Under the pieces are notes generated by a model, which was given only the letters and a program-made list of their open reading frames with translations, was not told where the DNA came from and did not search any database. From the NCBI GenBank assembly GCA_947627585.1, contig CANQWP010000001.1, positions 1 through 38,809 on the forward strand: a stretch of DNA of 38,809 nucleotides. Reading direction: 5' to 3'. This document shows, one piece after another, positions 1 to 27,789 of this stretch. Position 1 is the first letter of the stretch, and each line of letters starts with the position of its first letter. A program made the translations under genes and the position numbers. This DNA comes from an uncultured Clostridia bacterium. GTDB taxonomy: Bacteria > Bacillota > Clostridia > Christensenellales > UBA1242.

Positions 1-246
1 GACAACCAGATAGTCGCCACCGTCGTCGAGGAGGACGTAGCCTTTGCTCTTGAAAACATAGGCGTCGAGCCCGCCGTTTTTCAAAATGAAAGTTGTGTTT
101 GCTCCGCCCGAGGTGAGCTCTTGCACCATTGAGCCCGTGTATTCCGGCATCTTAAGGTCCAAAAACACTTGCAAGATGATAAGCCCCAAAATTATCGCCA
201 AAAAGAGACAATCAATGGGTTTGAAATTTTTCAGTAATTTAAACAT
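1..246 (-). CDS. ABC exporter (TMD-NBD fusion type), N-terminal fragment; start codon present, 3' part runs off the window
   Basis: Not in the ORF track because it is open at the window edge. The reverse complement of 1-246 reads ATG(246-244) MFKLLKNFKPIDCLFLAIILGLIILQVFLDLKMPEYTGSMVQELTSGG... for 82 codons without a stop. A short basic N-terminus, then TM1, then 'LDLKxPEY' is the usual opening of Firmicute type-I ABC exporter membrane domains. A consensus promoter lies upstream at 294-322. Confidence 0.6.
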   Translation of the reverse strand, partial: MFKLLKNFKPIDCLFLAIILGLIILQVFLDLKMPEYTGSMVQELTSGGANTTFILKNGGLDAYVFKSKGYVLLDDGGDYLVV

Positions 247-293
247 GTCTTCACCATTTTTCCTTGTTTTTGCATAGAAAAACAAAACAATTT

Positions 294-322
294 ATTATAA
301 AACAAATTCTTTTTCAATGCAA
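294..322 (-). promoter_or_regulatory. sigma-A type promoter for the ABC exporter gene
   Basis: The minus strand reads TTGCAT(322-317), a 17-nt spacer, then TATAAT(299-294), roughly 45-50 nt upstream of the ATG at 246. Confidence 0.6.
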
Positions 323-383
323 CAAATTTTCATATGCGATTTTCAACGTTTTTGTTTCAAAAAAAAGGTTTTTGCGCGAAAAA

Positions 384-3300
384 TCAAATTTTCTCCCACA
401 ATAACATTGGCAAGTTTGATGTTGTGTCCCAAATTGTTTCGCTGAAATTGAATTTTGAGTCATATTTTTGTGACTGTCCGCAGTTTTGCATTCTGGAGGA
501 GATTCCGTTTGCGCACAAGTCGCCTTGCTCGGTCGAAAAGCAAGAATTCATTTCGCCAAACAACGTCCCAACAAGCACGCCATATTTCAAACTGGTGTGA
601 ATTTGAACGGTGCTATATGAAAATTCAATGCTCTTTCTCAGCGAAGGAAAACTTCCATAAAGTCCGCCAATTGCCCCGCCTTGAACTTCATTGGTTGTGA
701 TTGAGCCTGAGGCATAATTGTCATGCGAAGAGCTTTGCCCATTCCCAACAAGCCCGCCGATTGTCACACTGCTTGCTCTTTCAACAAGAATTTGTGAATT
801 TGAAAAACTCTCTTCGGTCTTTGATTTTTCTTTGTCTTCGCCAATCAAGCCTCCAATTGTGGCGCGCGAAACATCTTTTGCGTCAAGCGTCCCTTTGAAA
901 GCGCTTTTTGAAACTTCCCCGCCATTTTCTCCAACAAGGCCGCCGGCAACGACATCGCTTGAATTGGTGATGACAATTTTGACTTCGCTTTCACAAAGCA
1001 TCAAAACTCCGGCATTTTTCCCGGCGAAGCCACTGACAATTTCGGCTTTCTCAATTTCGAGTTCTCCAAGCGCTACACAATTTTCAATGCTCCCAAAATT
1101 TTCACAAACAAAAACTCCAAACGTTTTTGCCTTGGTGGGTTTTATGTTTCCCTCCACAGTCAAGTTTTTCACTGTCCCATGATTTGCGCGTAAAAAGGCA
1201 TCGCTCAAATTTGAAATTTTGTGATCTTTTCCATCAAACTTTCCGTGAAAATCCGCGGCCGTCCACTTTTTCTGCGAAAAATCCAAATCGTTTCCCAAAG
1301 AAAAGTTGGCATATTGCGCATTTTGCATGAGAAGAAGATCGTTTTGCGTCGTGATTTTGATTGTTGGTGGCAAAACAAAGAATGTGATGGCAAGAAGCAA
1401 AGCGTTCAGCACGCCCAGCACGAAAAGTGTCAAAAACGTGGCGATCTTGCCCCTTGAAAGCCTTTTTTTCTTGATGAGAAAATATATCAAATTTCCGGCA
1501 GCCGCAGCGGCGGCATATGCTACTGAAATAATGAGAAATGTTTGTGAAAAATAAGGATAGACTTCTTTTGGCATGAAAATTGACAAGGCAAAAAGCATCA
1601 AAGAAAAGCAAAGCGGAATGAATTCAAGAAAAATAATCAAAAATCTCTTCAAAAACTGTTTTTTTCTCAAACTTTCGAATTGTTGTTCTCTTTTTTTCTC
1701 AACGAAGCTTTGTTTTTCTTCCGTTCTTGAAAATCCTCCCGCCTTTTCTTCAACTTGAAGAACACTTATTGAGGAATCAAGTGACAACCCCAACAAAAGA
1801 AGTCTCTCTTGAATTTTGTCATAAAGGGTCTGAAAGTCTTCAAATGTTTGCACGCTGTCAATTTTTGCGAGATATTTTTCAAAAGGCTTGAGTTGGCTCT
1901 TGAAATAGTCCAGCCCGATTTTTGCGGCGTCTTGCTTTTCAATGTCAAGTAAAATTTTTTCGTTGCGGAGCAAAAAGTTCTTCAGTTTGCTTTTAAGTTT
2001 TTCTTTGTCAAGAAGGTCGGGTTGAAAGTTTGTTTTCGTGCCGGAAAAAAGATTGTTTTTGCTGACAATTGCGCCGTATAATTCGTCGTGTGCATCGTCT
2101 CCAATTTCCAAAAGCGTTTCCCATTCCGGAAAGTCGCTTGGCTTCACTTTTGAGGCAATCACCTCTTCATCGCTTCGACAATGACATTTGATTTGAATCA
2201 ATTTCCAATAAAGTTCAGCGTTTGCCTCCGCTTTTGAAATGGCAATGGAAACATATTTCTCCGCCATTTTGAAAAATTGCATTTGTTGCAAAGCGTCAGC
2301 AATTTTTTTTAAAAGCGAAACAAGAGCAGAATTGTCTTGAATGTAGGCAAGATAAAAATCAAGTTGTTTCTCCGCCTCCTCAAGATTGAAAAATGCGACC
2401 GGCAAAATCAGGTCAACAACAGCAGAAACAAATGCAATTCGGGCTTTTTCGTCCAAAAATTGCAGCATGTTTTCAATTTCTTCACGATTGCGATAAGAAA
2501 GTTTGTCTTTTGGCGTCTCAAAATGCCTCAACATCAAGGCAATGTTGCTTTGTGCGTGGCCGGAATCGATTTCCAGAATTTTTTGATAATATTTTTTGTC
2601 GTCATTTTTCTGCGCAAGCAAAAAATAGAATCTTTCAAAACGGTCCACCACGTCTCTGCCAAAACAACTTTCAACATTTTCAATCAACTGTTGGTCATTT
2701 GTTTCAACAGCTTTGTTTTCTGCGGCGGACACAAAGTTTTCGCGATTTGGCGTCTTGAAAGAAGCAAGAAAGGTCAAATATTGATTGTAAAACTCAACAT
2801 CGTCCAACTCTTGAATCAACATTTCCCATCTGTCAACAAAGTTTTCGCCAAAACTTTTGTTTGCATATCTCAAAATGTTTTCAATCTGATCTTTGTCAGA
2901 GAAGTTTGAAATTTTTGAGAAAAATTCTTCTTCAGAGCAAATCTTTTTCTCCGCCAAAAGCTTTGCAAACAAAAGATCGCTACTGTATGGCTCATCTTCA
3001 AGTTCTTTTTCAACAAGCTCTTTTGCGGTTTGAAAATCTTTGTTTTTCAGCGCCAAAAAAATCCACTTCTTTTTTGAGTCAGAACTGCTTGGAACGTTTT
3101 GAACTTCATAGTGTCCCAAGTCGACCGGAGAAATGCTTTCCAAATCGAGATATTCTTTTTTCTTTGGCCGAGCCTTTTCGACCCTGATTGTGTCAATTTT
3201 GGCAAGTTCAGTCTTTGCGTTTTCAATTTCGTTGACAATTCTCACTTCCAAATCTTTGGAAAACGAAATTGATGTTGTGTCCATGACATTTTTTGCTTCA

Positions 3301-4088
3301 AAGAATTCTTTTGGCAAACTTTCGGCGAGTTTTGATTTTTCCGTGCACAACACAAAGCTTGAAGCCGTTTTTTTTCGCAAAGTAATAAGGTGGAAATATC
3401 GGTCAAACAAGTTTTTAAAACGACCTAGCGGGCTTTCGTCCAAATAGCAACAAACAAAAACTTTTGCTGTCTCCAAAGCGCGAAAAGAGATCTCTTCGCT
3501 TTCTTTTTGAAGCAAATCGTCACAATTGAAAACGGAAAGTTCGTTTGCGTTCAACATTTTCAAGATTTCGTTTTGAAATTGTGTTTTCTTTTCTTCATCT
3601 TTGCAAAAAATGCTCAAAATGCAATCAAAAATCTTTTTTTGTGCGCCGGCCTCATATCCTTTTTTGATTTTTTCTGTCCTTTTTGAGATGTCAACAAGCA
3701 TTTTTGCGCGCTCTGGGGGCGCAATTGATATCGCTTTTTTCGCGTCCTCGTCTTCCAACAAAGAAACAATTTTTTCACCAAAAAAACATGGGCTTTTCAG
3801 CACTCCACGTTTGTTGGGATATATGACAATTTTGTTTTTTGCAAGGGCTCGTCCAAAAAAGGCTTCAAAGGACATTGGAAAAAGTGAGAGAGTTTTGTTG
3901 AATTCGTCAAGCGCTTTTTCAAATTGCAATTCACGCAGAAAATCATATGCACGGGCGATCAAAAACTCTTCGTCTTTTGATGCTTGCTCATCGACATAAA
4001 GAGTCCCGCAAAACAAGCATTTGACCATGTTTTGCCCAACAACTTCATAGTTTTTTCCGCCACAATTGTTGCACGCTCTTTCTCTCAT
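384..4088 (-). CDS. Zn-ribbon / TPR-like helical repeat / 3-TM / extracellular GLUG-repeat protein (1234 aa; last gene of the ESCRT-like operon)
   Basis: ATG at 4088, TGA at 384. aa 6-28 form a zinc ribbon (CNNCGG-x13-CLFCG). aa ~45-810 are mostly helical with TPR-like units. Three hydrophobic helices lie at aa ~814-839, 849-872 and 882-907 (nt 1368-1649). RKKQFLKR precedes TM1 and KKKRLSRGK lies between TM2 and TM3, which gives N-in/C-out topology by the positive-inside rule. aa ~945-1190 start with FHGKFDGKDHKISNL and then repeat GGLVG/GGLIG/GGLVGN/GGLYG, which are GLUG-type repeats. Confidence 0.85.
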   Translation of the reverse strand: MRERACNNCGGKNYEVVGQNMVKCLFCGTLYVDEQASKDEEFLIARAYDFLRELQFEKALDEFNKTLSLFPMSFEAFFGRALAKNKIVIYPNKRGVLKSPCFFGEKIVSLLEDEDAKKAISIAPPERAKMLVDISKRTEKIKKGYEAGAQKKIFDCILSIFCKDEEKKTQFQNEILKMLNANELSVFNCDDLLQKESEEISFRALETAKVFVCCYLDESPLGRFKNLFDRYFHLITLRKKTASSFVLCTEKSKLAESLPKEFFEAKNVMDTTSISFSKDLEVRIVNEIENAKTELAKIDTIRVEKARPKKKEYLDLESISPVDLGHYEVQNVPSSSDSKKKWIFLALKNKDFQTAKELVEKELEDEPYSSDLLFAKLLAEKKICSEEEFFSKISNFSDKDQIENILRYANKSFGENFVDRWEMLIQELDDVEFYNQYLTFLASFKTPNRENFVSAAENKAVETNDQQLIENVESCFGRDVVDRFERFYFLLAQKNDDKKYYQKILEIDSGHAQSNIALMLRHFETPKDKLSYRNREEIENMLQFLDEKARIAFVSAVVDLILPVAFFNLEEAEKQLDFYLAYIQDNSALVSLLKKIADALQQMQFFKMAEKYVSIAISKAEANAELYWKLIQIKCHCRSDEEVIASKVKPSDFPEWETLLEIGDDAHDELYGAIVSKNNLFSGTKTNFQPDLLDKEKLKSKLKNFLLRNEKILLDIEKQDAAKIGLDYFKSQLKPFEKYLAKIDSVQTFEDFQTLYDKIQERLLLLGLSLDSSISVLQVEEKAGGFSRTEEKQSFVEKKREQQFESLRKKQFLKRFLIIFLEFIPLCFSLMLFALSIFMPKEVYPYFSQTFLIISVAYAAAAAAGNLIYFLIKKKRLSRGKIATFLTLFVLGVLNALLLAITFFVLPPTIKITTQNDLLLMQNAQYANFSLGNDLDFSQKKWTAADFHGKFDGKDHKISNLSDAFLRANHGTVKNLTVEGNIKPTKAKTFGVFVCENFGSIENCVALGELEIEKAEIVSGFAGKNAGVLMLCESEVKIVITNSSDVVAGGLVGENGGEVSKSAFKGTLDAKDVSRATIGGLIGEDKEKSKTEESFSNSQILVERASSVTIGGLVGNGQSSSHDNYASGSITTNEVQGGAIGGLYGSFPSLRKSIEFSYSTVQIHTSLKYGVLVGTLFGEMNSCFSTEQGDLCANGISSRMQNCGQSQKYDSKFNFSETIWDTTSNLPMLLWEKI

Positions 4089-4097
4089 GTTTGCCTT

Positions 4098-5240
4098 TTA
4101 ACTTTGTTTTTTCGTTCTCTTTTTGATGTAGCCGTTGATCTCTTCATTATATTTTTCAAATTCGGCAATTTCTTTTTCGGTCACGCTTGGGGGCATTTCG
4201 TCCAGAACGCGATCAAAGTCGGCATTTGAAACAAGCACAACTTTGTCGGTGGCGATGGCCTTCAAAAGCGGCTCGTCTTTTGCGCGGTCACAAAGTTCTT
4301 CCAAATCGGCACCGCTATATTTTTCGGTCTGAGTCACAATTTTGTCAACGTCAAAATTTTTGGTCACCGGAACACCTTTCATGTTTTTTTCAATCATAAA
4401 CTTTCTTGCCGGCGCGTCAGGAAGTGGAAGATAAATCTTCTGCGAAAAACGCCCTGAGCGCATTGCGGCGCTGTCGATGTCCCACGGTCTGTTTGTTGCG
4501 CCCAAAAGCAAAAGATTCGGGTTTCTGCCCGCAAAGCCGTCGATTTGTTGCAAAAATTCGTTCACACGCTTGTCGTTGTGGGTGTCAAGTCCACGTTTTC
4601 CAATCAAGCTGTCCATTTCGTCAATGAAAATGATGGCGCGCTCTTGTTTGTTGGCCTCTTCAAAAAGCGAGTTGATATTTTTTTCGCTGTCGCCCACCCA
4701 TTTGCTGACAATGTCGCTGCCTTTGACGGCATAGAACTTTGCGCCGACCTCATTTGCAATGGCTTTTGCAATCATTGTTTTTCCGGTGCCCGGCGGGCCA
4801 TAAAGCAGCACTCCTCCGCCCGTCTTTTTTCCATACATTTTGTATTTTTCCGGATATTTTGTCGGGTTGATCATTTTGATAGTGATGGCTTTTTTGACAT
4901 CTTCAAGTCCGGCGACATCGTCGAAGCTTATGTTTGGAATTTGCGCGGCCTGCCATTTTTTGAGGTCGTCATCTTCTTCATCTTGTTTTTTGTCGCTTTT
5001 TCCGGTCTTTTCTGGCGCTTTTTGAAGGTTCTCCGAAATCTTCACAAGTCCCCGCGCCCTTTCCATGCGCACGGCTTTCAGTTTCCCTTGGCTTTGCTTT
5101 GCCATTTGCATCATCGTCTCGCTGGCCAGCAAAAAATTACGCTTTGCAAGGCTGACATTTCCTTTTGCACGCGCCTCTTTGCCTTTTTTCATATAGAGGT
5201 CAAACTGTTCGGACAAAATGTTGATGTTCGTTTCTTCCAT
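4098..5240 (-). CDS. Vps4-like (meiotic-clade) AAA+ ATPase with N-terminal MIT-like domain (380 aa)
   Basis: ATG at 5240 follows a GGTGA RBS. Walker A is GPPGTGKT (aa 148-155, nt 4776-4799) and Walker B is IIFIDEMD (aa 203-210). The pore loop is SKWVGDSEK (Vps4 has SKWLGESEK). The SRH reads ATNRPWDIDSAAMRSGRF. The C-terminal PSVTEKEIAEFEKYNEEING resembles the Vps4/spastin C-terminal helix. aa ~8-75 are three helices with a MIT-like pattern, followed by a charged linker. Confidence 0.9.
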   Translation of the reverse strand: MEETNINILSEQFDLYMKKGKEARAKGNVSLAKRNFLLASETMMQMAKQSQGKLKAVRMERARGLVKISENLQKAPEKTGKSDKKQDEEDDDLKKWQAAQIPNISFDDVAGLEDVKKAITIKMINPTKYPEKYKMYGKKTGGGVLLYGPPGTGKTMIAKAIANEVGAKFYAVKGSDIVSKWVGDSEKNINSLFEEANKQERAIIFIDEMDSLIGKRGLDTHNDKRVNEFLQQIDGFAGRNPNLLLLGATNRPWDIDSAAMRSGRFSQKIYLPLPDAPARKFMIEKNMKGVPVTKNFDVDKIVTQTEKYSGADLEELCDRAKDEPLLKAIATDKVVLVSNADFDRVLDEMPPSVTEKEIAEFEKYNEEINGYIKKRTKKQS

Positions 5241-5254
5241 ATTTCACCAAATTT

Positions 5255-5848
5255 TCAGGCTTCACTGTCAATTTTCTTGCGCACTTCTTCCATTTCTTTG
5301 TCAATGTTTTCAGAAGAAAGTTCGTCTTGGCTGGCTTGCTCCATGATAAATTTTTCAAGTTCTGCATCGGTCATGCCTTTTCCGCTCTTGTCTTTGCCGG
5401 CATTGTAGAACGTCTCTTGGCTCATTTCCATGAAGTTGTCCATTTGGTCGGTTTGAGTTTCAACAGCAAGCATTGCCTCTTCAAACTGCGCTTGGATTTT
5501 TGCAAATTCTTTTGCATCGGCAAGTTTTGTCATCTCTTTTGAAATGTCGCTCATTCCGCGTAAGAATTCACTTGTCATCATGGTGACGTCTTTCATTTGA
5601 GCGGTGATTTCAAAGTTGAGAAGCATTTCTTGCGCGCGCTTTTGTTGTTGAACTGTCATCTTATAGCCCGAAAGTGCAAGATTGAACTGTGCGTCCAAGC
5701 CTTTGAGCTTCGCGCGCTTTGCGGCGTCAATGAACACCTGCTTTTGCTCTTCAAGTCGATTGATTTGCTTGTTCATTGTGTTGATTGTGCGCTTGATCAA
5801 CATCTTTTTTTCGATTTCTTTTTGTTGTTTGCTTTTGAAAAGTCCCAT
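5255..5848 (-). CDS. Snf7/ESCRT-III-like protein (197 aa, CHMP2/Vps2-like layout)
   Basis: ATG at 5848 follows a GGAGGAA RBS. The N-terminus is MGLFKSKQQK (hydrophobic then basic). A long basic helical hairpin (...IDAAKRAKLKGLDAQFNLALSGYKMTVQQQKR...) aligns by eye with CHMP2A ...IKKMAKQGQMDAVRIMAKDLVRTRRYVRK.... The central ...LADAKEFAKIQAQFEEAMLAVETQTDQMDNFM is comparable to CHMP2A LKLPQIQKIMMEFERQSEIMDMKEEMMNDAI. The C-terminus is acidic and ends in the amphipathic helix DKEMEEVRKKIDSEA. Confidence 0.7.
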   Translation of the reverse strand: MGLFKSKQQKEIEKKMLIKRTINTMNKQINRLEEQKQVFIDAAKRAKLKGLDAQFNLALSGYKMTVQQQKRAQEMLLNFEITAQMKDVTMMTSEFLRGMSDISKEMTKLADAKEFAKIQAQFEEAMLAVETQTDQMDNFMEMSQETFYNAGKDKSGKGMTDAELEKFIMEQASQDELSSENIDKEMEEVRKKIDSEA

Positions 5849-5851
5849 TTT

Positions 5852-6466
5852 TTATTCCTCCATTTTCATCTTTTTCTTTTTATTTGGTTGCGAAGGGCTC
5901 GCATTTTCCAACAACTCCTGTTCATCTTTCATGGCGCTTTCTTTTTCAAACATTGTCAAAATTTCGTCCTCTGTTTTTCCAACGCCATAAATTGGCTGAC
6001 TGACTTCATATGCCGATTGCACCTCGGCAAAAAGTTCATCGGCGGAAGTGAGCACATCTTCGCTTGCAATTCTTGTTTCAAGCGCCTTGTTCAGAAATTT
6101 TGCCAATCTTTTTTGGTCGGCCAAAAGTTCCGACAGTGGCACTTTTGTTTGTGTCTTGAAGAATGAGTTGCTGTCATATGCATCTTTCAGCTTGTTCATG
6201 AGGCGAATGTTGTAAAGAAGATACATTCCCCTTTCCATGCAAGTTTGTTTCTCTTCATTCAGGTGTGTGATTTTTTTTGCATAGAAAAGTTGCAAGTCGC
6301 GGCTCTTTTCTTTCTTCCCCTTTTCCATAAGCGCGTCAATTTCTTTGATTTTTTGCAAGACTTCCGCCTCGACAGTCCGCTCTTGGCGTTCAAGTTCGCA
6401 AATTGAATTGACCAAATCTTCACGATTGAGATTTTTGAATTTGTTTCGTCTGAATGGCCACCACAT
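5852..6466 (-). CDS. second ESCRT-III/Snf7-like coiled-coil protein (204 aa, CHMP6/Snf7-like layout)
   Basis: I place the start at ATG 6466-6464, which shares one base with the upstream TGA (TGATG) and follows a GAGGGGGA RBS. The track's first codon is an in-frame TTG at 6469. The N-terminus is MWWPFRRNKFKN (aromatic then basic, like the Snf7 MWSSLFGW or CHMP6 MGNLFGRKK membrane-anchoring ends). ...LMEKGKKEKSRDLQLFYAKKITHLNEEKQTCMERGMYLLYNIRLMNKLKDA resembles CHMP6 ...LLRDGRKERAKLLLKKKRYQEQLLDRTENQISSLEAMVQSIEF. An acidic C-terminal half is followed by a KKKKMKMEE tail. Confidence 0.6.
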   Translation of the reverse strand: MWWPFRRNKFKNLNREDLVNSICELERQERTVEAEVLQKIKEIDALMEKGKKEKSRDLQLFYAKKITHLNEEKQTCMERGMYLLYNIRLMNKLKDAYDSNSFFKTQTKVPLSELLADQKRLAKFLNKALETRIASEDVLTSADELFAEVQSAYEVSQPIYGVGKTEDEILTMFEKESAMKDEQELLENASPSQPNKKKKMKMEE

Positions 6467-6825
6467 CAATAGTTGTCCCCCTCATTTATTTTGTTGATCC
6501 TCTCCAAAAGATCGGCATATATGTTTTTTTGTTCAGCATTTGCAAATTCCAAGGCATTTTGGCATTCTGGCAAAAGCAAAACGCTCTTGAATTTGACCGG
6601 CTCAGCAAAAAGTTGATCCTCGTTGGAAATTTGAAATTTTGAAAGCATCATTCCCCACCAAGCATCGGCACACTTTTCGTCGAGTGAAATTGCACGGGTG
6701 AAATTTTGCTCTGCTTGTTCAAAAAACTCATCGCTCAAATTCAAATATCCAAGGTCAAGCTCAATTTCAACATTTCTTTTTGTTTCTTCTTCCAAGCCTG
6801 CGCTTGCAACGTGATTTCTTTTCAT
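6466..6825 (-). CDS. small soluble TPR-like protein (119 aa)
   Basis: ATG at 6825 shares one base with the upstream TAA (TAATG). FFEQAEQNFTRAISLDEKCADAWWGMMLSKF is a TPR-like helix pair of the same flavour as the repeats in the 1234-aa protein. No TM segment. Confidence 0.6.
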   Translation of the reverse strand: MKRNHVASAGLEEETKRNVEIELDLGYLNLSDEFFEQAEQNFTRAISLDEKCADAWWGMMLSKFQISNEDQLFAEPVKFKSVLLLPECQNALEFANAEQKNIYADLLERINKINEGDNY

Positions 6826-7232
6826 TATGATTGTTCGTCCTTTTTGCGCTGAACAATGTAGGCCTCAATTTCTTCCAAAACGCGAAAGCAAGTTTCTTGA
6901 GTGTTGTCTTGTGCGGTCATGATTTTCAAATCGTCCAACCTATTTGCAAGTTTGTTGTCCACCAAAAGCACTTTCGCGTTTGTTGTCGGATTGAAGAAGC
7001 GTATGTTGTCCTTCACTTCCACAAGCCTTCGGCAAAGTTCATCGTTGCCGTTTGCATAAACAATGATGCTTTCGACATTTGCCACCATGTTTTGAATTTG
7101 TTTTTTGTTTTTCATCACTCCGTGCGAGCCCGTCTCTTCCTCACTTTTTGGCCTTTTGACATATTCGCGGACCACATAGAATGTGGCAAGTCCAACAATG
7201 GCAATCAAAATTGTAACATACAAATAAATCAT
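6825..7232 (-). CDS. single-pass membrane protein (135 aa), function unknown
   Basis: ATG at 7232 follows an AAAGGAGA RBS. The N-terminal TM is MIYLYVTILIAIVGLATFYVV, followed by REYVKRPK and then a ~100-aa soluble helical part. I recognise no family. Confidence 0.7.
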   Translation of the reverse strand: MIYLYVTILIAIVGLATFYVVREYVKRPKSEEETGSHGVMKNKKQIQNMVANVESIIVYANGNDELCRRLVEVKDNIRFFNPTTNAKVLLVDNKLANRLDDLKIMTAQDNTQETCFRVLEEIEAYIVQRKKDEQS

Positions 7233-7250
7233 TTTTTCTCCTTTAAAGTT

Positions 7251-8081
7251 TTACAACTTTTGCCCGCATTTTTGGCAAAACTTTGCATCAGTCGAATTTC
7301 TCTCTCCGCAATTTGCACATCTTTTTTCTCTGGACAGCGCCTGGCCACAATTTGAGCAGAATTTTGAATTTCCTTTCACCTCGGCGCCGCAGTTTGGACA
7401 AAAACCGTTTTTCTCGGAATTTTTTGAAAGAACGCTCAGCCGTTTATAGTCCTCGCTGTCAATGATGATGTTTGCAATGTTAAACGAAAACACGGCAATT
7501 CCATATTCACTTTGAAGTTTGTGCGAAAGTTCGCTCAAAACTTTTTCCGAAATGGCTTTTTTGTGCATTGAAAGCTGATTGAATGGCACATGATTTTTTG
7601 AAATATAATCCAAAATCACCAATTCCATCACCGAAACAACGGTCGAGCGCAGCCTTTCTTGCAACAAATTTGCTGTCAAATCTTTGTCCGACCCGATGAG
7701 ATAGAGATAGCACTTTCTTGGGTCGCCAATTTGCACGTCAAAATCGCCGCTGAAGCCAACGTGATAATTTTCGTTTGAGTCTTCGTCAAAAAGCACAAGT
7801 TTTTGCGACGTTCCCCACAAAAGTTTGAGTTTTGCAGTCTTGCTCATGAAAAGCACTTCGATTTGGCTTTCAAGATCCTCTTTCATATCCAAAAAATCAG
7901 CAAGGGCATATTTGCCGGAAGAAAGCGTTTGAAGCATCTGCCCGTCTTTGATCAGAATGGCGTTGTGAGTTTCCGGAACGATCACAGAAAGTTTTTGCGA
8001 AAGAGTCTCAACTGGAACTCTGCAAAAAAGTTTGTCGTTGTTTCCAGAGAACTTGATTGTGTTTGCCTGATTTTTCTCCAT
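7251..8081 (-). CDS. SPFH-fold, YdjI-like ('virion core protein-like', COG4260-type) protein with C-terminal double zinc ribbon (276 aa)
   Basis: ATG at 8081, TAA at 7251. The core ...LLWGTSQKLVLFDEDSNENYHVGFSGDFDVQIGDPRKCYLYLIG...LRSTVVSVMELVILDYISKNHVPFNQLSMHKKAISEKVLSELSHKLQSEYGIAVFSFNIANIII matches the pattern I remember for B. subtilis YdjI-type SPFH proteins (WGT..pi.l.D...v.lrafG.y...I.DP..f......yGi.l.sf.i.ni). The C-terminus (nt 7254-7406) is FCPNCGAEVKGNSKFCSNCG...RCANCGERNSTDAKFCQKCG, i.e. two CxxC-x9-11-CxxC ribbons. Confidence 0.75.
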   Translation of the reverse strand: MEKNQANTIKFSGNNDKLFCRVPVETLSQKLSVIVPETHNAILIKDGQMLQTLSSGKYALADFLDMKEDLESQIEVLFMSKTAKLKLLWGTSQKLVLFDEDSNENYHVGFSGDFDVQIGDPRKCYLYLIGSDKDLTANLLQERLRSTVVSVMELVILDYISKNHVPFNQLSMHKKAISEKVLSELSHKLQSEYGIAVFSFNIANIIIDSEDYKRLSVLSKNSEKNGFCPNCGAEVKGNSKFCSNCGQALSREKRCANCGERNSTDAKFCQKCGQKL

Positions 8082-8111
8082 TTTTCACCCAAAAGTTGAC
8101 TTTTCTTATTC

Positions 8112-8140
8112 AGTATAACAAAAAATTTTTTCAAAGTCAA
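8112..8140 (-). promoter_or_regulatory. promoter of the seven-gene ESCRT-like operon
   Basis: The minus strand reads TTGACT(8140-8135), a 17-nt spacer, then TATACT(8117-8112) with TGT immediately upstream (extended -10). It lies ~30 nt upstream of the ATG at 8081, and a terminator lies just upstream of it. Confidence 0.6.
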
Positions 8141-8175
8141 AAGAACTTAAAGAAAAAACACAATTTTTGTCGAAG

Positions 8176-8210
8176 AAAAAACCGGGATTTGTGAGTTTTC
8201 CCGGCTTTTT
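8176..8210 (-). terminator. rho-independent terminator after the 164-aa lipoprotein gene (bidirectional shape)
   Basis: Stem CCGGGA(8182-8187)/TCCCGG(8199-8204) with an 11-nt loop, an A-run on one side and a T-run on the other. On the minus strand it reads GCCGGGAAAACTCACAAATCCCGGTTTTTT. Confidence 0.75.
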
Positions 8211-8222
8211 CACGTTTTTGTC

Positions 8223-8717
8223 TTAGGCCTCTGCCTTATAGTTTTCAAGGTCAAAGTTGACTGTGTATGTCGCGCCCTCTTCTGCATCTTTTTCTGTGAC
8301 TTTCACGGTGAAAGACTTTTCATTGCTTTCAACCACACGAACAAGTTGCAAAACGTCGTCTTTTTCTGTGTCATTTGTGCTTGTTTTGTTGTCTCCCAAA
8401 ACGCCGGTATATTCCACCTTAGATCCGGCTTTGAAATCAACTTCAACAATCACATAGGCTTTGCCCTTATATTTTGTTGTGCCGCCCCAAACCTTTGCTT
8501 GATCTTCGGTCAAAGTGTTGGCTGTTCCGCTGACAACAAAGGTGTTTTCTTTGTCTTTGGCAATTTTAAGTTTGTCGCCATTGTTGAATTTTTGCGCCGA
8601 AATTGTGACATCACCAGAAGCAAGTCTCACGGCCATTGGCTCTCCACAAGACGCAAGCGTAAGTCCGCCCACAAGCAAAATTGCAAGGCATGCCATGATT
8701 GACAAAAGTTTTTTCAT
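8223..8717 (-). CDS. small lipoprotein (164 aa), function unknown
   Basis: I trim the track ORF (TTG at 8732) to ATG 8717, which follows the GAGGAGG RBS. The signal peptide is MKKLLSIMACLAILLVGGLTLASC with the lipobox LASC. The mature part is beta-rich. Confidence 0.8.
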   Translation of the reverse strand: MKKLLSIMACLAILLVGGLTLASCGEPMAVRLASGDVTISAQKFNNGDKLKIAKDKENTFVVSGTANTLTEDQAKVWGGTTKYKGKAYVIVEVDFKAGSKVEYTGVLGDNKTSTNDTEKDDVLQLVRVVESNEKSFTVKVTEKDAEEGATYTVNFDLENYKAEA

Positions 8718-8946
8718 GTTTTTCCTCCTCAAAGATTAACACTGTGGGCCTTGCACAATCGACTTAATATGCTCCCGACTGTGTTTGAACTGCGCGGAAA
8801 GTGTCTTTTCGCGTTTAATCTAGTATGTCAAGCGGAAAGATTTTTATTCTTTGTCACATTTTTTGAGCAAAAGCAATAAATTGATAATGTGCAAAAAGTT
8901 TAAGCACATAAAAGTCGTTACATAAGAAATTTTTTAGGAGGCACAA

Positions 8947-9159
8947 ATGAACTTTTTTGGAGGCTCAAATTGTGGCAATGTAGGGGAAAATTGTGGTGGC
9001 GGAAATGACTGCTGCTCTCTCATCTTCCTGCTTTTGCTCTTGCAAAACTGCGGTTGCGGTTTTGGCGGCTTCAAAGGCGGAATCAACATCGACTGTGAAA
9101 CACTTTTGTTCTTGATTTTGCTCTCAAATCTTGGCTGCGGCTGTGGCTGCGGCAAATAA
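8947..9159 (+). CDS. Cys/Gly-rich hydrophobic miniprotein (70 aa) with internal duplication
   Basis: An AGGAGG RBS lies 6 nt before the ATG, and terminator 9184-9212 follows. The sequence is MNFFGGSNCGNVGENCGGGNDCCSLIFLLLLLQNCGCGFGGFKGGINIDCETLLFLILLSNLGCGCGCGK, which contains two copies of [C-x-S/T-L-hydrophobic8-N-x-GCG-x-G]. Confidence 0.7.
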   Translation: MNFFGGSNCGNVGENCGGGNDCCSLIFLLLLLQNCGCGFGGFKGGINIDCETLLFLILLSNLGCGCGCGK

Positions 9160-16469: not shown

Positions 16470-19400
16470 TTAATAATTCTTTAAAATTTTCTTTCGCTTT
16501 TTCATTTTTATCACCGTGATTGCCAAAGCAAAAACGCACAATGCCGAAATCACAAACACCGAAACAATCACCGCGTAATCAACCCATGCCTCGTCGTCGA
16601 TTGCAATATAAAATTCCCCAAGAGACAATGCTGAAATTATGATTTGACCGTTTGCATCTTTTTCGCTTTCAAGAAGTTCAAATGTACCGTCTTCCAGTTG
16701 TTTATAAATATATATGTTATTTTTGTCATAAATGGATTTTGGCAAATTTATTTTGATTGTAAACAAACTGTTTGTGCTGACCTCGTGAGAGCCGTTTTCA
16801 AGCCATATGCGATATTTAAGCAAAAGTCGCTGATTATGGATTTTTTTCAAGCCATCAAGGCTTTCTTTGGAATAATTAAGCACATAGTTGTCATACAAAA
16901 CCGGGTCTTTTGCAGAAACGCTGACATCTTCTTTTTCAATCTTGCCCAAAGTTATGTCGCCATAAAGGACTTCGGGCAAAATCAAATTATAGTTGTCTTT
17001 TTTCTCCCCTGAAAGAGAGATGTCGTGAACATGAACAGGAATGTTTTTGCCAACTTGTGAACTCTCAAATTCCGCACTGTTGTTTTTGTCATACAAAGGA
17101 TAAATTTCATCAATTGTTCCGGAAATGTATGGGTTTTTGAGCCAAGCACGCGTTGTGCCGTCATAAATTTTGTCATAGATTCCAGAAATTAAGTATACAT
17201 CTTTTTTCAAAATTTCAAGCTGCGCCGGAAGAAGCGTGATTTCATAATTGGAATTATAAATGCTGTTGACAAGATTATATTTCCCAACATCTTCGCCGGC
17301 TTCTCGCGTGATGATGCCATAAAGCTTGTCACCCTCCAGAAGATTTCCTTCAACAATTTCAAAATCAAAAGATGGGTCGCTTTGGCCGTATGTTTTTTCG
17401 TAGTTCTCACTTTGGATTGTAAGCTTCAGCGGACGGATTGTCACCTCGCCTTTGATGTAGGTGATGTTGTAATTCCTGTTTATTTTAAGCTTGCTTATGA
17501 TGTCATATGCACCAACCGAATTTCCCTTAACTCTTTGCAACGAGCCTTGGATTAAGTCACCATCCAAAAGTGTTCCGGAAACAATTTGATATGAAAGTTC
17601 TGGCTCAGTGTCTCCATACACAATTTCAACACTGTTTGCTTTCAGTGTGATTTCGCGTGGAAGTATCGTGAAATAATGTTCGCCAAAAACAATTTCGTAA
17701 TTTGGATTTTCAAGTGTTGAGTGAATTCTGTATTTTCCGGTGCTTTCTCTTTCAATTTTGTCTTTGTCTCTGAAAAGTCCGCCTTCAAGAACGTCTTGCC
17801 CCACAAGTTCGCCAACAAGTTGATATTCAATTTCAACATCTTCTTCGCCATATTGTTTTGAAAGCGTGATTGGCACAACTTCCACAATTTTTTTCTCAAT
17901 TTCAAAATTCTTGCTTATAAAATCAAAAGAATAGTTTTCGCTGAGATGAATGTCTCCTTGCAAAATTGCATAAAAACCGACATTTTCTCCTTCTTTTCTT
18001 GAAAGTTTACCTTCAACTTTGTCGCCAAACACCAGCCCTTCAGCAGAAACTTCAAAAGAAAACTCTGGATCGGCATCCCCATATGTCTTTTTGCTTTCAA
18101 TCGCCGTGATTGTGATGTGCCTTTTGATGATTTCAAAACTGCCGCTTTCAAAAGTGAGAACATAGTTTTTCCCAAAAGAGAAGTCCCCGCGATCGATGGA
18201 ATATGTCCCAACATTTTCGCCTTCTTCTCTTGAAAGCTCTCCTTGGGCAATATCTTCCAATCGATCGTTGTTTTTCAAGAATCCTTTTGTGATTGTGACA
18301 CTCAAAGACGGGTCTTCGTCACCATATATCTTCACTTTTTTGTCAGCCTTCACCGAAACTTCGCATGGCGTAATGGTCAAAAATGCTCCGTCCGCGAATT
18401 CAATGGCATATCTTGCATCGTTTGTTGTCCCACAAAGAAGTCTATATTCCCCCACATCTTCGCCATATTCACGAATGATATGAACGCTCAGCTTTTCTCC
18501 TTCAACCTCATTTTCGACAGAATATTCAAAAACAGGATCGTCTTCTCCATATGTTTTTGTTGAGTTTTTGCCTGTGACAACAACCGGCCTTTTCAAGATT
18601 ATGAAGTTTGTGTCGCCACTTGTTTTGAAGACATAGTTTGCGCTTGTTGAAATATGCTCAACATCATATGCATACACGCCAACAGCTTCGCCTGCTTGAC
18701 GTTCAATTTTGCCGTCAATCACTTCTTCGACTTTGTCGTCAAAACATAATTTGTCAACAATATCAAATTTGATTGTTGGATCTTCATCTCCAAAATATTT
18801 TGTTTGATTTTCCACAAAGATGCTGATTTCTCGTGGCAGAATTTCAAAACTGGATTCCACCAAATTGATGTCATAGTTCGGATTTTTGATTGCATAAGTT
18901 TCGTTTAAACGATATGCATAGCTTCCAACATTTTCGCCTTCTTGACGTGCAATTTCCAGATCAAGAGATTCGCCTTCCACAACTCTGTTTGCAGCAAATG
19001 TGAAAATTGGGTCTTGGTCTCCATATGTTTTGCTTGATGTGTCCACAAAAATGTTGACTTTGCGTTTTGAGATCTCAATTTCAGAATTAAAGTATTGATA
19101 TTTGAAGCAATAGTTCGACATTTCCTCACACGAAATTTGATAATCTTCCACACTCACTTTTGCTTTGCCGCAATCCTTGCTTTCCAGCAGAGCGTTTATT
19201 TTAAGCAAAAATTCGGCTTCTTTAATGTTGTTGAAAAATTCAACTTCGTGCTCCACATTTGTCGTTCCGTCATATTCTTTATCCAAAAAGTGAACAAGGA
19301 TGGTGATTTCTCTTGGAGTGATTTCAAGAACGTTTTCGGTGAAAACTATGTTATAGTTTGAATTGTTTAAAGTCCCCTTCAAAATTTTGTAACTTCTGAC

Positions 19401-21608
19401 ATCTTCGCCCTGTTCACGTTCAAGGCTTCCAAAAATTTCATCTCCGTCAACAAGGTTTGAGACAGAAAATGTCAGCGACGGATCTTTGTCTCCAAAAGTT
19501 TTGCTTTTTCGTTCGGCCTTCACGAAAGCGTCTCGTGGAACAATTGTGCAAATGGCACTTTCAAAACTTATGATATAGTTTGGATTTGAAAGGTTTTCTT
19601 GTTCAATCAAATGCTGACCAACATATTTGCTGTCAATCTTAAGTGAACCGGTCAAAACATCTCCTTCAAAAAGATCGCAGTCATATTCAAGCAAAATTTC
19701 TTCGCCGTATGTGAATGTGCATTCTTTCGCCTTGACAGTGATTGGTTTTGGATCGATGTTTCCAAAAATTGGCTGAACATATTCTTCCAAAACATAATTT
19801 TTGCTGTCGCTGCCATAAAGTTCTGCTTGCGTGATTTTGACATCAATTCCCTTGCCGGCATCTTTTGAGACAAACTCCCCTGAGAGAGAAACTTTGACAT
19901 CTTCGTTGTTGAAAATGTTTCTCAGTCCGGCATTTATTGTCGCTTCGCGCGTTGCATCATATTCCTTTTCTTCAACGGTGACATTCTCAAGACTGAGTTT
20001 TCTTGGTGTGATTTCAAACTGTGCGCTTGAGCTGTCAATAACAATGTTATAATTTGGATTTTTCTCTTCCAAATTTCCACTTGTGATGGCATATTTTCCA
20101 ATCTTTTCGCCTGCTTCTCTGCCAAGATTGCCCGAAAGTTGTTCTCCTTGAACAAGATTGTCGGCCTCATATTCAATCGACGAGTCAGCGTAGCCATATT
20201 CTTTTTTCGTGTCTTTTGCAACAACTTTTGCATCTCTTTTCAAAATTTCGCCATATGAATTTGGCAAATTCTGAGATTTGAGGGCATAAATTTCTGCATT
20301 TTTGCCTGTCAAAACAAGTTCCTCATATGATACATTTATCAATTTATGCTCCCCTGCATTTGGATCGCGATATGAAAGGGAAATTCCTTCCAACCCCAGC
20401 TGGTGACCTTCTTCAAGCCCGTCAAATTTCACAGATGCTGTGCTTTCATCAATGTCCACTGTGCCGTCATATACACGGCTTTGAACTTCAATGCCAGAAA
20501 TTGTTATGTTTTTTCTGAACTTGGCAAAAACGTATTTCCCGGCGCTTGTGACAAGCCTTCTGTTTTTTGAAACGTAACTTCCGTCAACATACCATCCCAA
20601 AAATTCAAAGTCTTGCTTTGGTGTCACGTTGAGGGTGATTGGTTTCCCAAAAAGATATGTGCCCGTTCCAAAAAAGTTTGCAGGATCAAAAAAGTCAGAA
20701 TCCACTTCCACGTCCACATAAATTTCTTCTGGATTTGCAATTGTGAATGTCACATAGTTTGTGGAATATATCTTTTGAGTGGAATAGGAGTTTTGATTGC
20801 AGAAAACTCGGAACGTGATTGGCTCCCCGCTTGGAGCATCTTGTTTGATGACAAAGTTGCTGCCAACGATGTTCACATATTCAGAGCCAGAAACAAACTC
20901 ATAGTGAATTTCGTGGTTGATTTTTGAGAAACTGATAAAGTTTCCATTTGAGCCCGATATTTTTGTGACTTCGTTATATGCGTTCACTTTGACAGTTTGC
21001 CCAGGAGCAACCTTTTGATTTTCACAATCAAGTGTGACGCTGTCAATAATGGTGTAAAGATGAATTGTCGGGACGTCAATGACAAATTCATTTTCTCCTC
21101 TTGGCGAAGATGTTTCAAAAGAGAATCTAATGTTTTGTTCAAAGTCTTCAATTTTAAGCAAATCCGTCTCAACATTTCCGCCGCTTGAGCTGACCTCTTT
21201 AAATTTGTCGCCAGAAGAAATTTTGATTGTCACTTTTGTGTTTTTTTCTGTTTGAATTGAAGCTGTTGCTTTTGCAAAAAGCAAGCCTTTCTCGATAAAC
21301 GGCTGCATGTCCGGTGTTGGACACAACTCGCTCCAACCCGAGCTTGTCCCGGATCCATCATCAACAATGGAATAATATTCTCCACCATTTTCTGTTGTTT
21401 TGGCATTCACAAAGGTGTCATTTTTGCTGTCATCTTTGAAAAAATGTTCTGGACTTGTGCCTGCAAGACCTGTGAGAACATATCTGTTTCCGGCCACACC
21501 ATCAATCGATGCTGCGCTTGCAATTTGGAAATTTGGCATAGGGAAAAACATGCAGGCAAAAACCAGCATAATCAAAACTATGAACATTTTGTTAAACAGT
21601 TTTTTCAT
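16470..21608 (-). CDS. giant surface protein with MBG (YGX-type) and YDG repeats and a C-terminal TM anchor (1712 aa)
   Basis: ATG at 21608 follows a GGGAGGGG RBS. The signal peptide ends ...IASA/AS. FEFLGWYVDGSYVS is a Listeria-Bacteroides-type repeat motif. By manual count there are ~11 units of K-x-YG-x-xDP...G-x-L-x-R-x-x-GE-x-VG-x-Y-x-I...NYNI....F-x-I-x-PR and ~4 YDGT-type units. The C-terminus is a TM (YAVIVSVFVISALCVFALAITVI) followed by KMKKRKK. There is no LPXTG. Confidence 0.85.
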   Translation of the reverse strand: MKKLFNKMFIVLIMLVFACMFFPMPNFQIASAASIDGVAGNRYVLTGLAGTSPEHFFKDDSKNDTFVNAKTTENGGEYYSIVDDGSGTSSGWSELCPTPDMQPFIEKGLLFAKATASIQTEKNTKVTIKISSGDKFKEVSSSGGNVETDLLKIEDFEQNIRFSFETSSPRGENEFVIDVPTIHLYTIIDSVTLDCENQKVAPGQTVKVNAYNEVTKISGSNGNFISFSKINHEIHYEFVSGSEYVNIVGSNFVIKQDAPSGEPITFRVFCNQNSYSTQKIYSTNYVTFTIANPEEIYVDVEVDSDFFDPANFFGTGTYLFGKPITLNVTPKQDFEFLGWYVDGSYVSKNRRLVTSAGKYVFAKFRKNITISGIEVQSRVYDGTVDIDESTASVKFDGLEEGHQLGLEGISLSYRDPNAGEHKLINVSYEELVLTGKNAEIYALKSQNLPNSYGEILKRDAKVVAKDTKKEYGYADSSIEYEADNLVQGEQLSGNLGREAGEKIGKYAITSGNLEEKNPNYNIVIDSSSAQFEITPRKLSLENVTVEEKEYDATREATINAGLRNIFNNEDVKVSLSGEFVSKDAGKGIDVKITQAELYGSDSKNYVLEEYVQPIFGNIDPKPITVKAKECTFTYGEEILLEYDCDLFEGDVLTGSLKIDSKYVGQHLIEQENLSNPNYIISFESAICTIVPRDAFVKAERKSKTFGDKDPSLTFSVSNLVDGDEIFGSLEREQGEDVRSYKILKGTLNNSNYNIVFTENVLEITPREITILVHFLDKEYDGTTNVEHEVEFFNNIKEAEFLLKINALLESKDCGKAKVSVEDYQISCEEMSNYCFKYQYFNSEIEISKRKVNIFVDTSSKTYGDQDPIFTFAANRVVEGESLDLEIARQEGENVGSYAYRLNETYAIKNPNYDINLVESSFEILPREISIFVENQTKYFGDEDPTIKFDIVDKLCFDDKVEEVIDGKIERQAGEAVGVYAYDVEHISTSANYVFKTSGDTNFIILKRPVVVTGKNSTKTYGEDDPVFEYSVENEVEGEKLSVHIIREYGEDVGEYRLLCGTTNDARYAIEFADGAFLTITPCEVSVKADKKVKIYGDEDPSLSVTITKGFLKNNDRLEDIAQGELSREEGENVGTYSIDRGDFSFGKNYVLTFESGSFEIIKRHITITAIESKKTYGDADPEFSFEVSAEGLVFGDKVEGKLSRKEGENVGFYAILQGDIHLSENYSFDFISKNFEIEKKIVEVVPITLSKQYGEEDVEIEYQLVGELVGQDVLEGGLFRDKDKIERESTGKYRIHSTLENPNYEIVFGEHYFTILPREITLKANSVEIVYGDTEPELSYQIVSGTLLDGDLIQGSLQRVKGNSVGAYDIISKLKINRNYNITYIKGEVTIRPLKLTIQSENYEKTYGQSDPSFDFEIVEGNLLEGDKLYGIITREAGEDVGKYNLVNSIYNSNYEITLLPAQLEILKKDVYLISGIYDKIYDGTTRAWLKNPYISGTIDEIYPLYDKNNSAEFESSQVGKNIPVHVHDISLSGEKKDNYNLILPEVLYGDITLGKIEKEDVSVSAKDPVLYDNYVLNYSKESLDGLKKIHNQRLLLKYRIWLENGSHEVSTNSLFTIKINLPKSIYDKNNIYIYKQLEDGTFELLESEKDANGQIIISALSLGEFYIAIDDEAWVDYAVIVSVFVISALCVFALAITVIKMKKRKKILKNY

Positions 21609-21626
21609 GTTTCCCCTCCCTTTGTC

Positions 21627-27788: not shown

Positions 27789-27789
27789 G

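Follow-up and report, generated by a model that had tools for sequence, protein, structure and literature searches.

Do bacteria possess an ATP-driven ESCRT-III machinery comparable to that of archaea and eukaryotes? According to recent reviews, bacteria lack a Vps4-like ATPase, and their ESCRT-III relatives PspA and Vipp1 act without such an enzyme (PMC7619361, PMC10936438). Ravi et al. (2024) described transfers of VPS4-like ATPases to bacteria, Planctomycetes being among the listed phyla, but these took place without snf7, which was displaced by a TPR+6TM protein (PMC11237479, Text S2.2); scattered bacterial Snf7-like proteins have been reported as well (PMC11237479). The question is raised by a fragment of a Clostridia genome, 38,809 nt of contig CANQWP010000001.1 (hereafter the window). 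It carries on its minus strand the gene of a AAA+ ATPase of 380 amino acids (open reading frame [ORF] 4098-5240) and, ending 14 nt upstream of it, the gene of a protein designated here as A-type, which is itself preceded by the gene of a B-type protein. A preliminary description of this DNA had assigned a MIT-like N-terminal domain to the ATPase and a helix resembling the MIT-interacting motif MIM1 to the C-terminus of its neighbour, and had called such a pairing unusual for bacteria. Measured against the two reviews this is still true, the earlier known VPS4-like transfers being those without snf7, and a targeted search of a library of papers found no description of this operon. It is fairly probable that the operon represents a bacterial counterpart of the ESCRT-III/Vps4 system, whose ATPase would dock via MIT-like domains on the tails of the A-type protein. 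The identities of the parts were determined by the comparisons described below, from which we infer docking and function.

Identity of the A-type and B-type proteins

Neither the A-type nor the B-type protein matched anything meaningful in Pfam (Snf7 included) or NCBIfam, and profiles of their narrow families yielded only noise against the sequences of the PDB. Orthologues of both were taken from the related loci L081 to L086 (contigs that encode divergent ATPases of the family; L081, L082/83 and L084 are Clostridia-like), L004 (Planctomycetales), and L001 and L002 (Chloroflexi). Aligned by hhalign to five eukaryotic ESCRT-III proteins, a nine-sequence A-type alignment reached 95% (E 3e-8, 151 aligned columns), and a larger alignment 92%. 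The register starts with residue 1 on residue 1, placing MGLFKSK of the A-type protein over MGLFGK of CHMP3. While the real comparison scored 57.4, reversed and column-shuffled controls did not exceed 15.7. In the opposite direction, a hidden Markov model (HMM) of the five references, run against 5262 ORFs of the fetched loci, gave four matches at E <1, all of which were A-type proteins.

The AlphaFold2 (AF2) model of the A-type protein, a long hairpin with three more helices (7-48, 52-106, 112-150, 161-174 and 179-196), has a layout that fits ESCRT-III, at a predicted local distance difference test (pLDDT) value of only 58. With this low-confidence model, the leading Foldseek matches belonged almost without exception to ESCRT-III, namely Asgard ESCRT-IIIB, CdvB, CHMP1B, CHMP2A/3 and Snf7 (ESCRT-III probability 0.98-0.99, E ~0.1), Vipp1 appearing lower down. 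Membership of the A-type and B-type proteins in the PspA family was rejected, since both lacked a match to Pfam PspA_IM30 and stayed below 1% in hhalign comparisons with E. coli PspA and Synechocystis Vipp1, a test of limited power, as the ESCRT-III references themselves reach only 4% with that pair. On account of the hhalign result and its clean controls, the specific reverse search, the structural matches and the negative comparison with PspA and Vipp1, the A-type protein is shown at the level of sequence profiles to be a divergent Snf7-type ESCRT-III homologue and not detectably a PspA. The Snf7-like character ascribed to it in the preliminary description was thus borne out.

For the B-type protein, a weak signal was obtained. 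A diverse alignment gave 25% with the ESCRT-III references (E 7.5e-4, score 30.8), with the N-termini aligned and the controls again at or below 15.7. No link between the A-type and B-type proteins emerged from hhalign with narrow or with larger alignments; the narrow comparison was empty because these alignments are too shallow (Neff 1.3). The B-type protein possesses a conserved KGKKEK stretch resembling a hairpin tip and a conserved acidic-hydrophobic C-terminal motif of its own, a helix of the form (D/E)(D/E)xLxx(F/M)E. It is tentatively considered a candidate second ESCRT-III-like subunit.

The ATPase and its putative docking on the A-type tail

All motifs listed for the ATPase in the preliminary description were recovered at the correct positions in the ORF translation: Walker A GPPGTGKT (residues 148-155, nt 4776-4799), the pore loop SKWVGDSEK from residue 179, Walker B IIFIDEMD from residue 203, the second region of homology (SRH) ATNRPWDIDSAAMRSGRF from residue 248 and the C-terminal stretch PSVTEKEIAEFEKYNEEING from residue 351. 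Their occurrence is beyond chance, as hundreds of homologues keep them and so do orthologues in three phyla that are 39-65% identical. Pfam identified the cassette as AAA (2e-42) with AAA_lid_3. The Vps4_C model, whose helix has a similar counterpart in Cdc48 D2, scored 19.3 bits with the window ATPase, compared to a cut-off of 21.3, and 29 bits, above this cut-off, with a Chloroflexi orthologue. The NCBIfam CdvC profile was aligned over almost its whole length (residues 10-367 of the protein, positions 8-367 of 370).

To place the ATPase, it was aligned with real CdvC, Cdc48 and FtsH proteins from the fetched loci and with Vps4, spastin and katanin sequences verified by Pfam. In the preliminary description, the pore loop had been compared to those of Vps4 and spastin and the C-terminal helix to the pattern of the meiotic clade. 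Both elements, of the forms SKWVGxSE(K/R) and 'PSV..E...Y', were also found in archaeal Cdc48 D2 and p97 D2. Because archaeal Cdc48 D2 has both, they are not specific for Vps4 and were rejected as evidence for the meiotic clade. On the other hand, the ATPase family contains the motif 'ATNxPW' as Vps4 does. In a neighbour-joining tree (265 columns, 100 bootstraps, rooted on FtsH) the family was monophyletic (98) and sister to, not within, the Vps4/CdvC/katanin/spastin group (86/100), while a grouping with D2 never occurred (0/100). Foldseek matches of the full ATPase model to p97 and to Vps4 were not distinguishable and are therefore uninformative as to the clade. Judged by its sequence, the protein is a single-cassette classic AAA+ ATPase of a distinct family that lies near the split between Cdc48 D2 and Vps4, outside the meiotic clade proper.

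Some relatives differ from the window ATPase in architecture. Many members of the family carry an extra C-terminal domain of ~110 amino acids ending in G(I/L)xExDxG(I/V/L/F), which has no Pfam match and is not present in the window ATPase (P0365, P0369, P0374, P0377, P0382, P0385, P0386, P0395, P0398, P0414, P0415, P0430 and P0440; an example is L081:3742-5277). Four proteins of the representative library (P0361, P0405, P0435, P0438) show a MIT-like domain followed by two AAA cassettes, and a RuvB-like region is joined to P0368. The double-cassette and RuvB-like forms may be fusions or assembly artefacts.

Residues 8-75 of the ATPase read as quoted in the preliminary description. AF2 predicted three helices in the N-domain (6-25, 29-49 and 53-72, pLDDT ~80), followed by the acidic linker, which is predicted to be disordered (pLDDT <50 at residues 75-95) and varies in length and sequence across the family. 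As the window sequence alone matched nothing in the PDB, a family profile was built from the first 85 residues of members down to 44% identity, drawn from a library clustered at 50%. With this profile, MIT domains ranked on top of the PDB matches (E 1e-3 to 1e-2), among them the MIT domain of chitin synthase (2mpk, 1e-3), the Sulfolobus Vps4 MIT domains (2w2u and 2v6y, 1e-3 to 1e-2), the calpain-7 MIT domain and CdvC (4lcb). TPR proteins were found among the weaker matches. MIT was also the commonest weak Pfam match, occurring in 13 of 28 N-domains of the family (best E 3e-4). An hhalign comparison with the MIT domains of yeast Vps4, human VPS4B and two Nitrosopumilus CdvC proteins, all four Pfam-verified, gave 74% (E 3e-5) and covered all three helices, while shuffled and reversed controls remained at or below 11%. 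In helix 3, a conserved ERA(K/R) is preceded by a hydrophobic residue, M59, which corresponds to L64 of VPS4A. Each of the lines of evidence from profiles and structure prediction is modest taken singly, but since they add up, a MIT-like domain is the best reading of the N-terminus.

MIM1 has the consensus (D/E)xxLxxRLxxL(K/R), forms a helix at the extreme C-terminus and binds to MIT domains in their helix 2/3 groove. The A-type protein terminates in SSENIDKEMEEVRKKIDSEA, and its last predicted helix likewise follows a flexible segment at the extreme C-terminus; nt 5258-5311, to which this ending had been assigned, cover the last 18 of its 20 residues, a trivial slip. The core of the window tail is IDKEMEEVR, and the tails of the divergent orthologues align as an amphipathic helix of the pattern PHI-x3-PHI-x2-PHI-(K/R)-x2-PHI (PHI, hydrophobic). 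The relaxed core PHI-x3-PHI-x2-PHI-[KR] was present in 119 of 120 close relatives and in five of nine divergent orthologues from three phyla, compared to a background of 4.7% of ORF C-termini, and in no B-type protein. One sub-branch of the A-type proteins has a shorter motif, F-x2-F-K. The relaxed pattern also picks up the tails of CHMP1B, CHMP2A and CHMP3 in what we take to be their sequences.

Taken together, a putative MIT-MIM docking of the ATPase N-domain on the A-type tail appears plausible from these sequence features. The A-type protein, perhaps with the B-type protein, would polymerise on a membrane, aided by an SPFH/zinc-ribbon protein and a small membrane protein of the same operon, the SPFH scaffold recruiting or organising the polymer. 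The ATPase hexamer would then be recruited by binding of its MIT-like domains to the exposed C-terminal helix of A-type subunits, an A-type subunit would be pulled through the K-W pore loops, and by this ATP-consuming step the polymer would be remodelled or taken apart. The role of the system is likely membrane repair or remodelling, and it is possibly tied to conflict or defence through the large zinc-ribbon/TPR/TIR-like membrane protein encoded at the end of the operon.

A number of observations weigh against this reading. The ESCRT-III references were checked by Pfam Snf7 at the family level only, and confidence in the AF2 models of the ATPase and the A-type protein is low (pLDDT 66 and 58, respectively). 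The B-type signal fell to 0.9% with a larger alignment, so that this assignment is not robust. For the N-domain, the single window sequence had no match in Pfam or in the PDB, and the evidence for MIT is marginal at every single step (E ~1e-3; 74%). Of the MIT-like domain suggested in the preliminary description, the three predicted helices stand, as does, at marginal significance, the top rank of MIT domains among the profile matches. In the A-type tail, E or G stands in place of the conserved Arg of MIM1, which precedes the second hydrophobic position, and four of the nine divergent orthologues lack the strict core. Because of this replacement the tail, as far as its sequence tells, is MIM1-like in form, with hydrophobic spacing and a final K/R far above background, and not a consensus MIM1. 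The ATPase missed the NCBIfam CdvC equivalog cut-off (201 vs 650 bits). Its SRH, MRSGRF, is of the RxGR type of Cdc48 and FtsH, instead of the RR type without the two-residue PG insert that the alignment revealed for CdvC, Vps4, spastin and katanin and that is characteristic of the meiotic clade. Group HMMs scored the family equally for the meiotic clade and Cdc48 D2 (window ATPase, 251 and 268, respectively). Membership in the meiotic clade, as implied in the preliminary description, is reduced to a sister position in the tree.

These points bear on two other explanations. One of them assumes the same parts but another docking, the N-domain being a generic TPR-like helical bundle that serves a different partner. 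The acidic-hydrophobic B-type helix would be a candidate for this, as would the SPFH protein and the large zinc-ribbon/TPR protein, and the terminal helix of the A-type protein would be used for autoinhibition or polymer packing. The TPR proteins among the weaker N-domain matches, the altered tail with its missing Arg and incompletely kept core, the conserved C-terminal motif of the B-type protein and the TPR-rich partners encoded in the operon would agree with this explanation. Nevertheless it is unlikely, given that MIT domains, those of Vps4 and CdvC included, are the top profile matches, that the A-type tail is placed at the extreme C-terminus past a flexible segment as MIMs are, and that adjacency of ESCRT-III and MIT-AAA genes is the rule in archaea (PMC10936438). 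The other explanation, in which the likeness is superficial, has very little probability. The ATPase would then be an unfoldase of the Cdc48/VAT kind in truncated form, its helical N-domain would be unrelated to MIT, and its neighbours would be PspA-like or generic coiled-coil envelope-stress proteins. This explanation could account for the Cdc48-type SRH, pore loop and C-terminal helix, for group-profile scores in which Cdc48 D2 equals or slightly surpasses the meiotic clade, for the failure of the A-type and B-type proteins to match Pfam Snf7, and for the SPFH and zinc-ribbon company, which is also found in B. subtilis pspA-ydjGHI (PMC10936438). However, it is at variance with the strong match of the A-type protein to Snf7-type proteins and not to PspA/Vipp1, with the specificity of the reverse HMM, with a tree that joins the family to the meiotic clade and never to D2, and with the first rank of the MIT matches.

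The operon, related loci and conflict-system company

The seven minus-strand genes from position 8081 down to 384 are separated by gaps of at most 18 nt or overlap, and are read as one operon (Table 1). The promoter-like site upstream of its first gene agrees with the consensus at 10 of 12 positions and is the best one in positions 1-9000, as a consensus match only. The SPFH protein was identified by Pfam (Band_7_1 4e-15, Zn_Ribbon_1 7e-16, DZR 3e-11) and is likely a membrane scaffold; SPFH proteins encoded together with ESCRT-III or PspA have precedent (PMC10936438). The 135-residue protein had no Pfam match and was not assigned to a family, and the TPR-like protein of 119 residues is missing from some related loci. 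Beyond the parts given in Table 1, the last gene product has a segment that looks like a degenerate TIR domain, as well as transmembrane helices and, at its C-terminus, a region of repeats.

Table 1. Features of the operon and of the proteins it encodes (window coordinates)
Feature	Position	Strand	Basis or remarks
Promoter-like site	8112..8140	-	TTGACT, 17-nt spacer, TG-extended TATACT; just upstream of operon gene 1
SPFH (Band_7_1) protein with two C-terminal zinc ribbons, 276 aa	7251..8081	-	Pfam
Small protein, 135 aa, hydrophobic N-terminal segment	6825..7232	-	ORF
TPR-like protein, 119 aa	6466..6825	-	Weak SHNi-TPR and TPR_16 matches
B-type protein, 204-205 aa, N-terminus MWWPFRRNKF	5852..6469	-	Tentative second ESCRT-III-like subunit
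A-type ESCRT-III (Snf7-type) homologue by profile, 197 aa, N-terminus MGLFKSK	5255..5848	-	hhalign, reverse HMM
A-type C-terminal amphipathic helix, residues 179-197	5258..5314	-	MIM1-like core I-x3-M-x2-V-R
MIT-like three-helix N-domain of the ATPase, residues 6-72	5025..5225	-	Profiles, AF2
Disordered charged linker of the ATPase, residues 73-97, KKQDEEDDDLKK	4950..5024	-	pLDDT
Single AAA+ cassette, lid and C-terminal helix of the ATPase, residues 98-372	4125..4949	-	Pfam
1234-aa protein, last gene of the string	384..4088	-	ORF; N-terminal zinc ribbon, helical/TPR region

Close homologues of the ATPase number in the thousands, and the module abounds in gut metagenomes of humans and animals. 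The closest homologues come from metagenome-assembled genomes that bear the names Candidatus Caccovivens sp. or Clostridia bacterium. A scan of genome contigs with generic Walker-A patterns gave, among the matches listed, mostly Cdc48 and FtsH and missed the close Clostridia relatives; the Chloroflexi and Planctomycetes loci and the real CdvC, Cdc48 and FtsH references were among these listed matches. The order B-type, A-type, MIT-AAA, with the three genes adjacent, recurs in L081, L082/83, L084 and the Planctomycetales locus L004. In L081, L082, L084 and L085 the A-type gene is immediately preceded by the B-type gene, and L004 has a positional counterpart. The order is partial in L085, where the B-type gene is cut by the contig end, and in L086, where the upstream partial ORF is weakly similar to A-type, not to B-type proteins. 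As for Chloroflexi, the A-type gene directly precedes the ATPase gene in L002, a 236-residue ORF further upstream being without similarity to the B-type; in L001 it lies ~3.5 kb upstream of the ATPase gene with unrelated ORFs in between. The core of the module thus consists of the A-type and MIT-AAA genes, which are immediate neighbours in all loci but L001. The ATPase family is accordingly encoded next to ESCRT-III genes, one of the two Chloroflexi loci included, as described for archaeal systems, where this adjacency is the rule (PMC10936438). Four loci share the SPFH/zinc-ribbon protein and a small protein; the SPFH-zinc-ribbon architecture adjoins the ATPase in L081, L082/83 and L084, and proteins of 110-144 residues follow the SPFH gene at the same position in L081, L082 and L084.

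Two further observations were made at these loci. The Chloroflexota metagenome-assembled genome of L002 encodes two MIT-like AAA ATPases (L002:2244-3440 and L002:4146-5288), one of which belongs to the window family, while the other, with a meiotic SRH (no PG insert) and the pore loop SKYFGES, groups within Vps4, katanin, spastin and CdvC. By these sequence traits the latter looks like a bacterial member of the meiotic clade proper. Moreover, a Ser/Thr kinase with a double zinc ribbon (L004:5774-6823), a PQQ beta-propeller with TPR and zinc ribbon (L002:5297-7936) and a protein with a borderline GOLD/EMP24 match (L001:5558-6829, 25.6 bits vs a cut-off of 25.9) echo the accessory domains of archaeal ESCRT loci (PMC10936438).

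In several Clostridia-like loci the module is accompanied by genes known from conflict systems. The N-terminal 250 residues of the 1234-residue protein are homologous (E 7e-19) to an ATPase neighbour in L081 with zinc ribbon, TPR and a faint TIR_2 match (L081:6766-9723). TIR+TPR giants adjoin the module in L082/83 (L082:9358-12765), BrxL is encoded in L081, L084 and the contig of P0440, and a trypsin-like protease in L084. Together with PADLOC IetA models that match the ATPase at 3e-39, this company would be in line with an operon that is primarily an anti-phage or conflict system, an IetA-like ATPase beside TIR, BrxL or protease effectors, whose coiled-coil proteins are sensors or effectors and not parts of a housekeeping ESCRT machine. 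Such an assignment has a low probability. The IetA matches are at a level reached by any classic AAA protein, and the NCBIfam IteA equivalog cut-off was clearly missed (113 vs 510 bits). The other operon proteins had no PADLOC match save a weak one of the 119-residue protein to PDC-S20 (E 0.0015), and in the window no mobile elements or defence genes were found around the operon. Furthermore, the effectors vary between loci, whereas the core of ESCRT-III, ATPase and SPFH proteins is constant. The TIR, BrxL and protease genes of the related loci suggest an ESCRT-like core with defence-like company. A conflict function is in any case compatible with, and not opposed to, the mechanism proposed above, and the frequency of this company may point to a connection of conflict systems with membrane remodelling.

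The TPR-like protein of 119 residues and the N-termini of the large zinc-ribbon/TPR proteins have a short motif in common (AWWGMMLSKF, AFFGRALAKNK, AMMGIAYAHGK and ALWGIMHSKL are examples), which may be a shared adaptor repeat. Outside the operon, the window is ordinary chromosome with surface proteins, Fe-ADH and tRNAs. Positions 16470-27884 (minus strand) encode two giant surface proteins unrelated to the operon, one of 1712 residues with nine MBG_2 and three YDG domains, the other of 2085 residues with Big_2 and hyaluronate-lyase-like beta domains.

Significance and comparison with known systems

If a Snf7-type protein and a MIT-AAA ATPase cooperate as proposed, the operon would provide a simple bacterial system for ATP-driven remodelling of ESCRT-III and for the recognition of tails by MIT domains. 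As the module is very common in gut metagenomes, its function should matter for the biology of gut Clostridia. The ATPase family would also help to date the descent of Vps4 from Cdc48, be it as an outgroup or as an intermediate. It combines 'ATNxPW' and a MIT-like domain, as in Vps4, with the RxGR of Cdc48. A rather doubtful reading that goes further is that a complete ATP-driven ESCRT machine of Snf7-type subunits and a MIT-bearing AAA+ disassemblase exists in at least three bacterial phyla (gut Clostridia, Planctomycetes and Chloroflexi), equipped with an SPFH/zinc-ribbon scaffold in the Clostridia-like loci, and that its ATPase, by this combination of traits, is a surviving intermediate on the way from Cdc48 to Vps4 and not a recent copy of an archaeal Vps4. 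Were this true, recruitment of the MIT-MIM type would predate the archaeal radiation or lie outside it.

The closest known systems are archaeal CdvB/CdvC and the euryarchaeal loci described by Makarova et al. (2024, PMC10936438), especially those of the 'Meth_adaptin' type in Methanobacteriales. The operon shares with them one or more ESCRT-III genes directly upstream of a MIT-AAA gene lacking the beta-domain and, with the Meth_adaptin loci, an SPFH protein that has a coiled coil and a zinc ribbon; kinase (L004), PQQ propeller (L002) and borderline GOLD (L001) proteins in the related bacterial loci add to this likeness. Unlike the archaeal systems, it resides in a bacterial host, its ATPase has an RxGR SRH and scores below the CdvC cut-off, its ESCRT-III proteins are too divergent for Pfam Snf7, and neither a winged-helix (ESCRT-II-like) protein nor CdvA or a protein with an adaptin appendage was detected. 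With eukaryotic Vps4 the ATPase has in common a three-helix N-domain on a flexible acidic linker, and the A-type tail agrees with MIM1 of CHMP1/CHMP2/CHMP3 (Vps46/Vps2/Vps24) in the L-x3-L-x2-L-(K/R) spacing and in forming the extreme C-terminal helix. What separates them from this pair is the exchange of Arg for E or G in the tail and the lack of the beta-domain and the Vta1 site in the ATPase.

Archaeal Cdc48/VAT D2 resembles the ATPase in SKWVGESE(K/R), RxGR, the 'PSV..E...Y' helix and equal profile scores. By contrast, the window protein has a single cassette, a MIT-like domain in place of the double-psi barrel N-domain and 'ATNxPW' as in Vps4, and the neighbour-joining tree excludes a grouping with D2. 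Among bacterial systems, B. subtilis pspA-ydjGHI likewise combines a protein of the ESCRT-III superfamily with a Band_7_1 SPFH protein (YdjI), zinc-ribbon modules and a small membrane protein, but the putative polymer-former of the window is Snf7-type and not PspA-type, and is accompanied by a dedicated MIT-AAA ATPase. The VPS4-like ATPases of Ravi et al. (PMC11237479) are also AAA+ proteins of the MIT type in bacteria. In contrast to their operons, one clear and one possible ESCRT-III gene adjoin the ATPase gene here, and the family to which this ATPase belongs is abundant in gut Clostridia.

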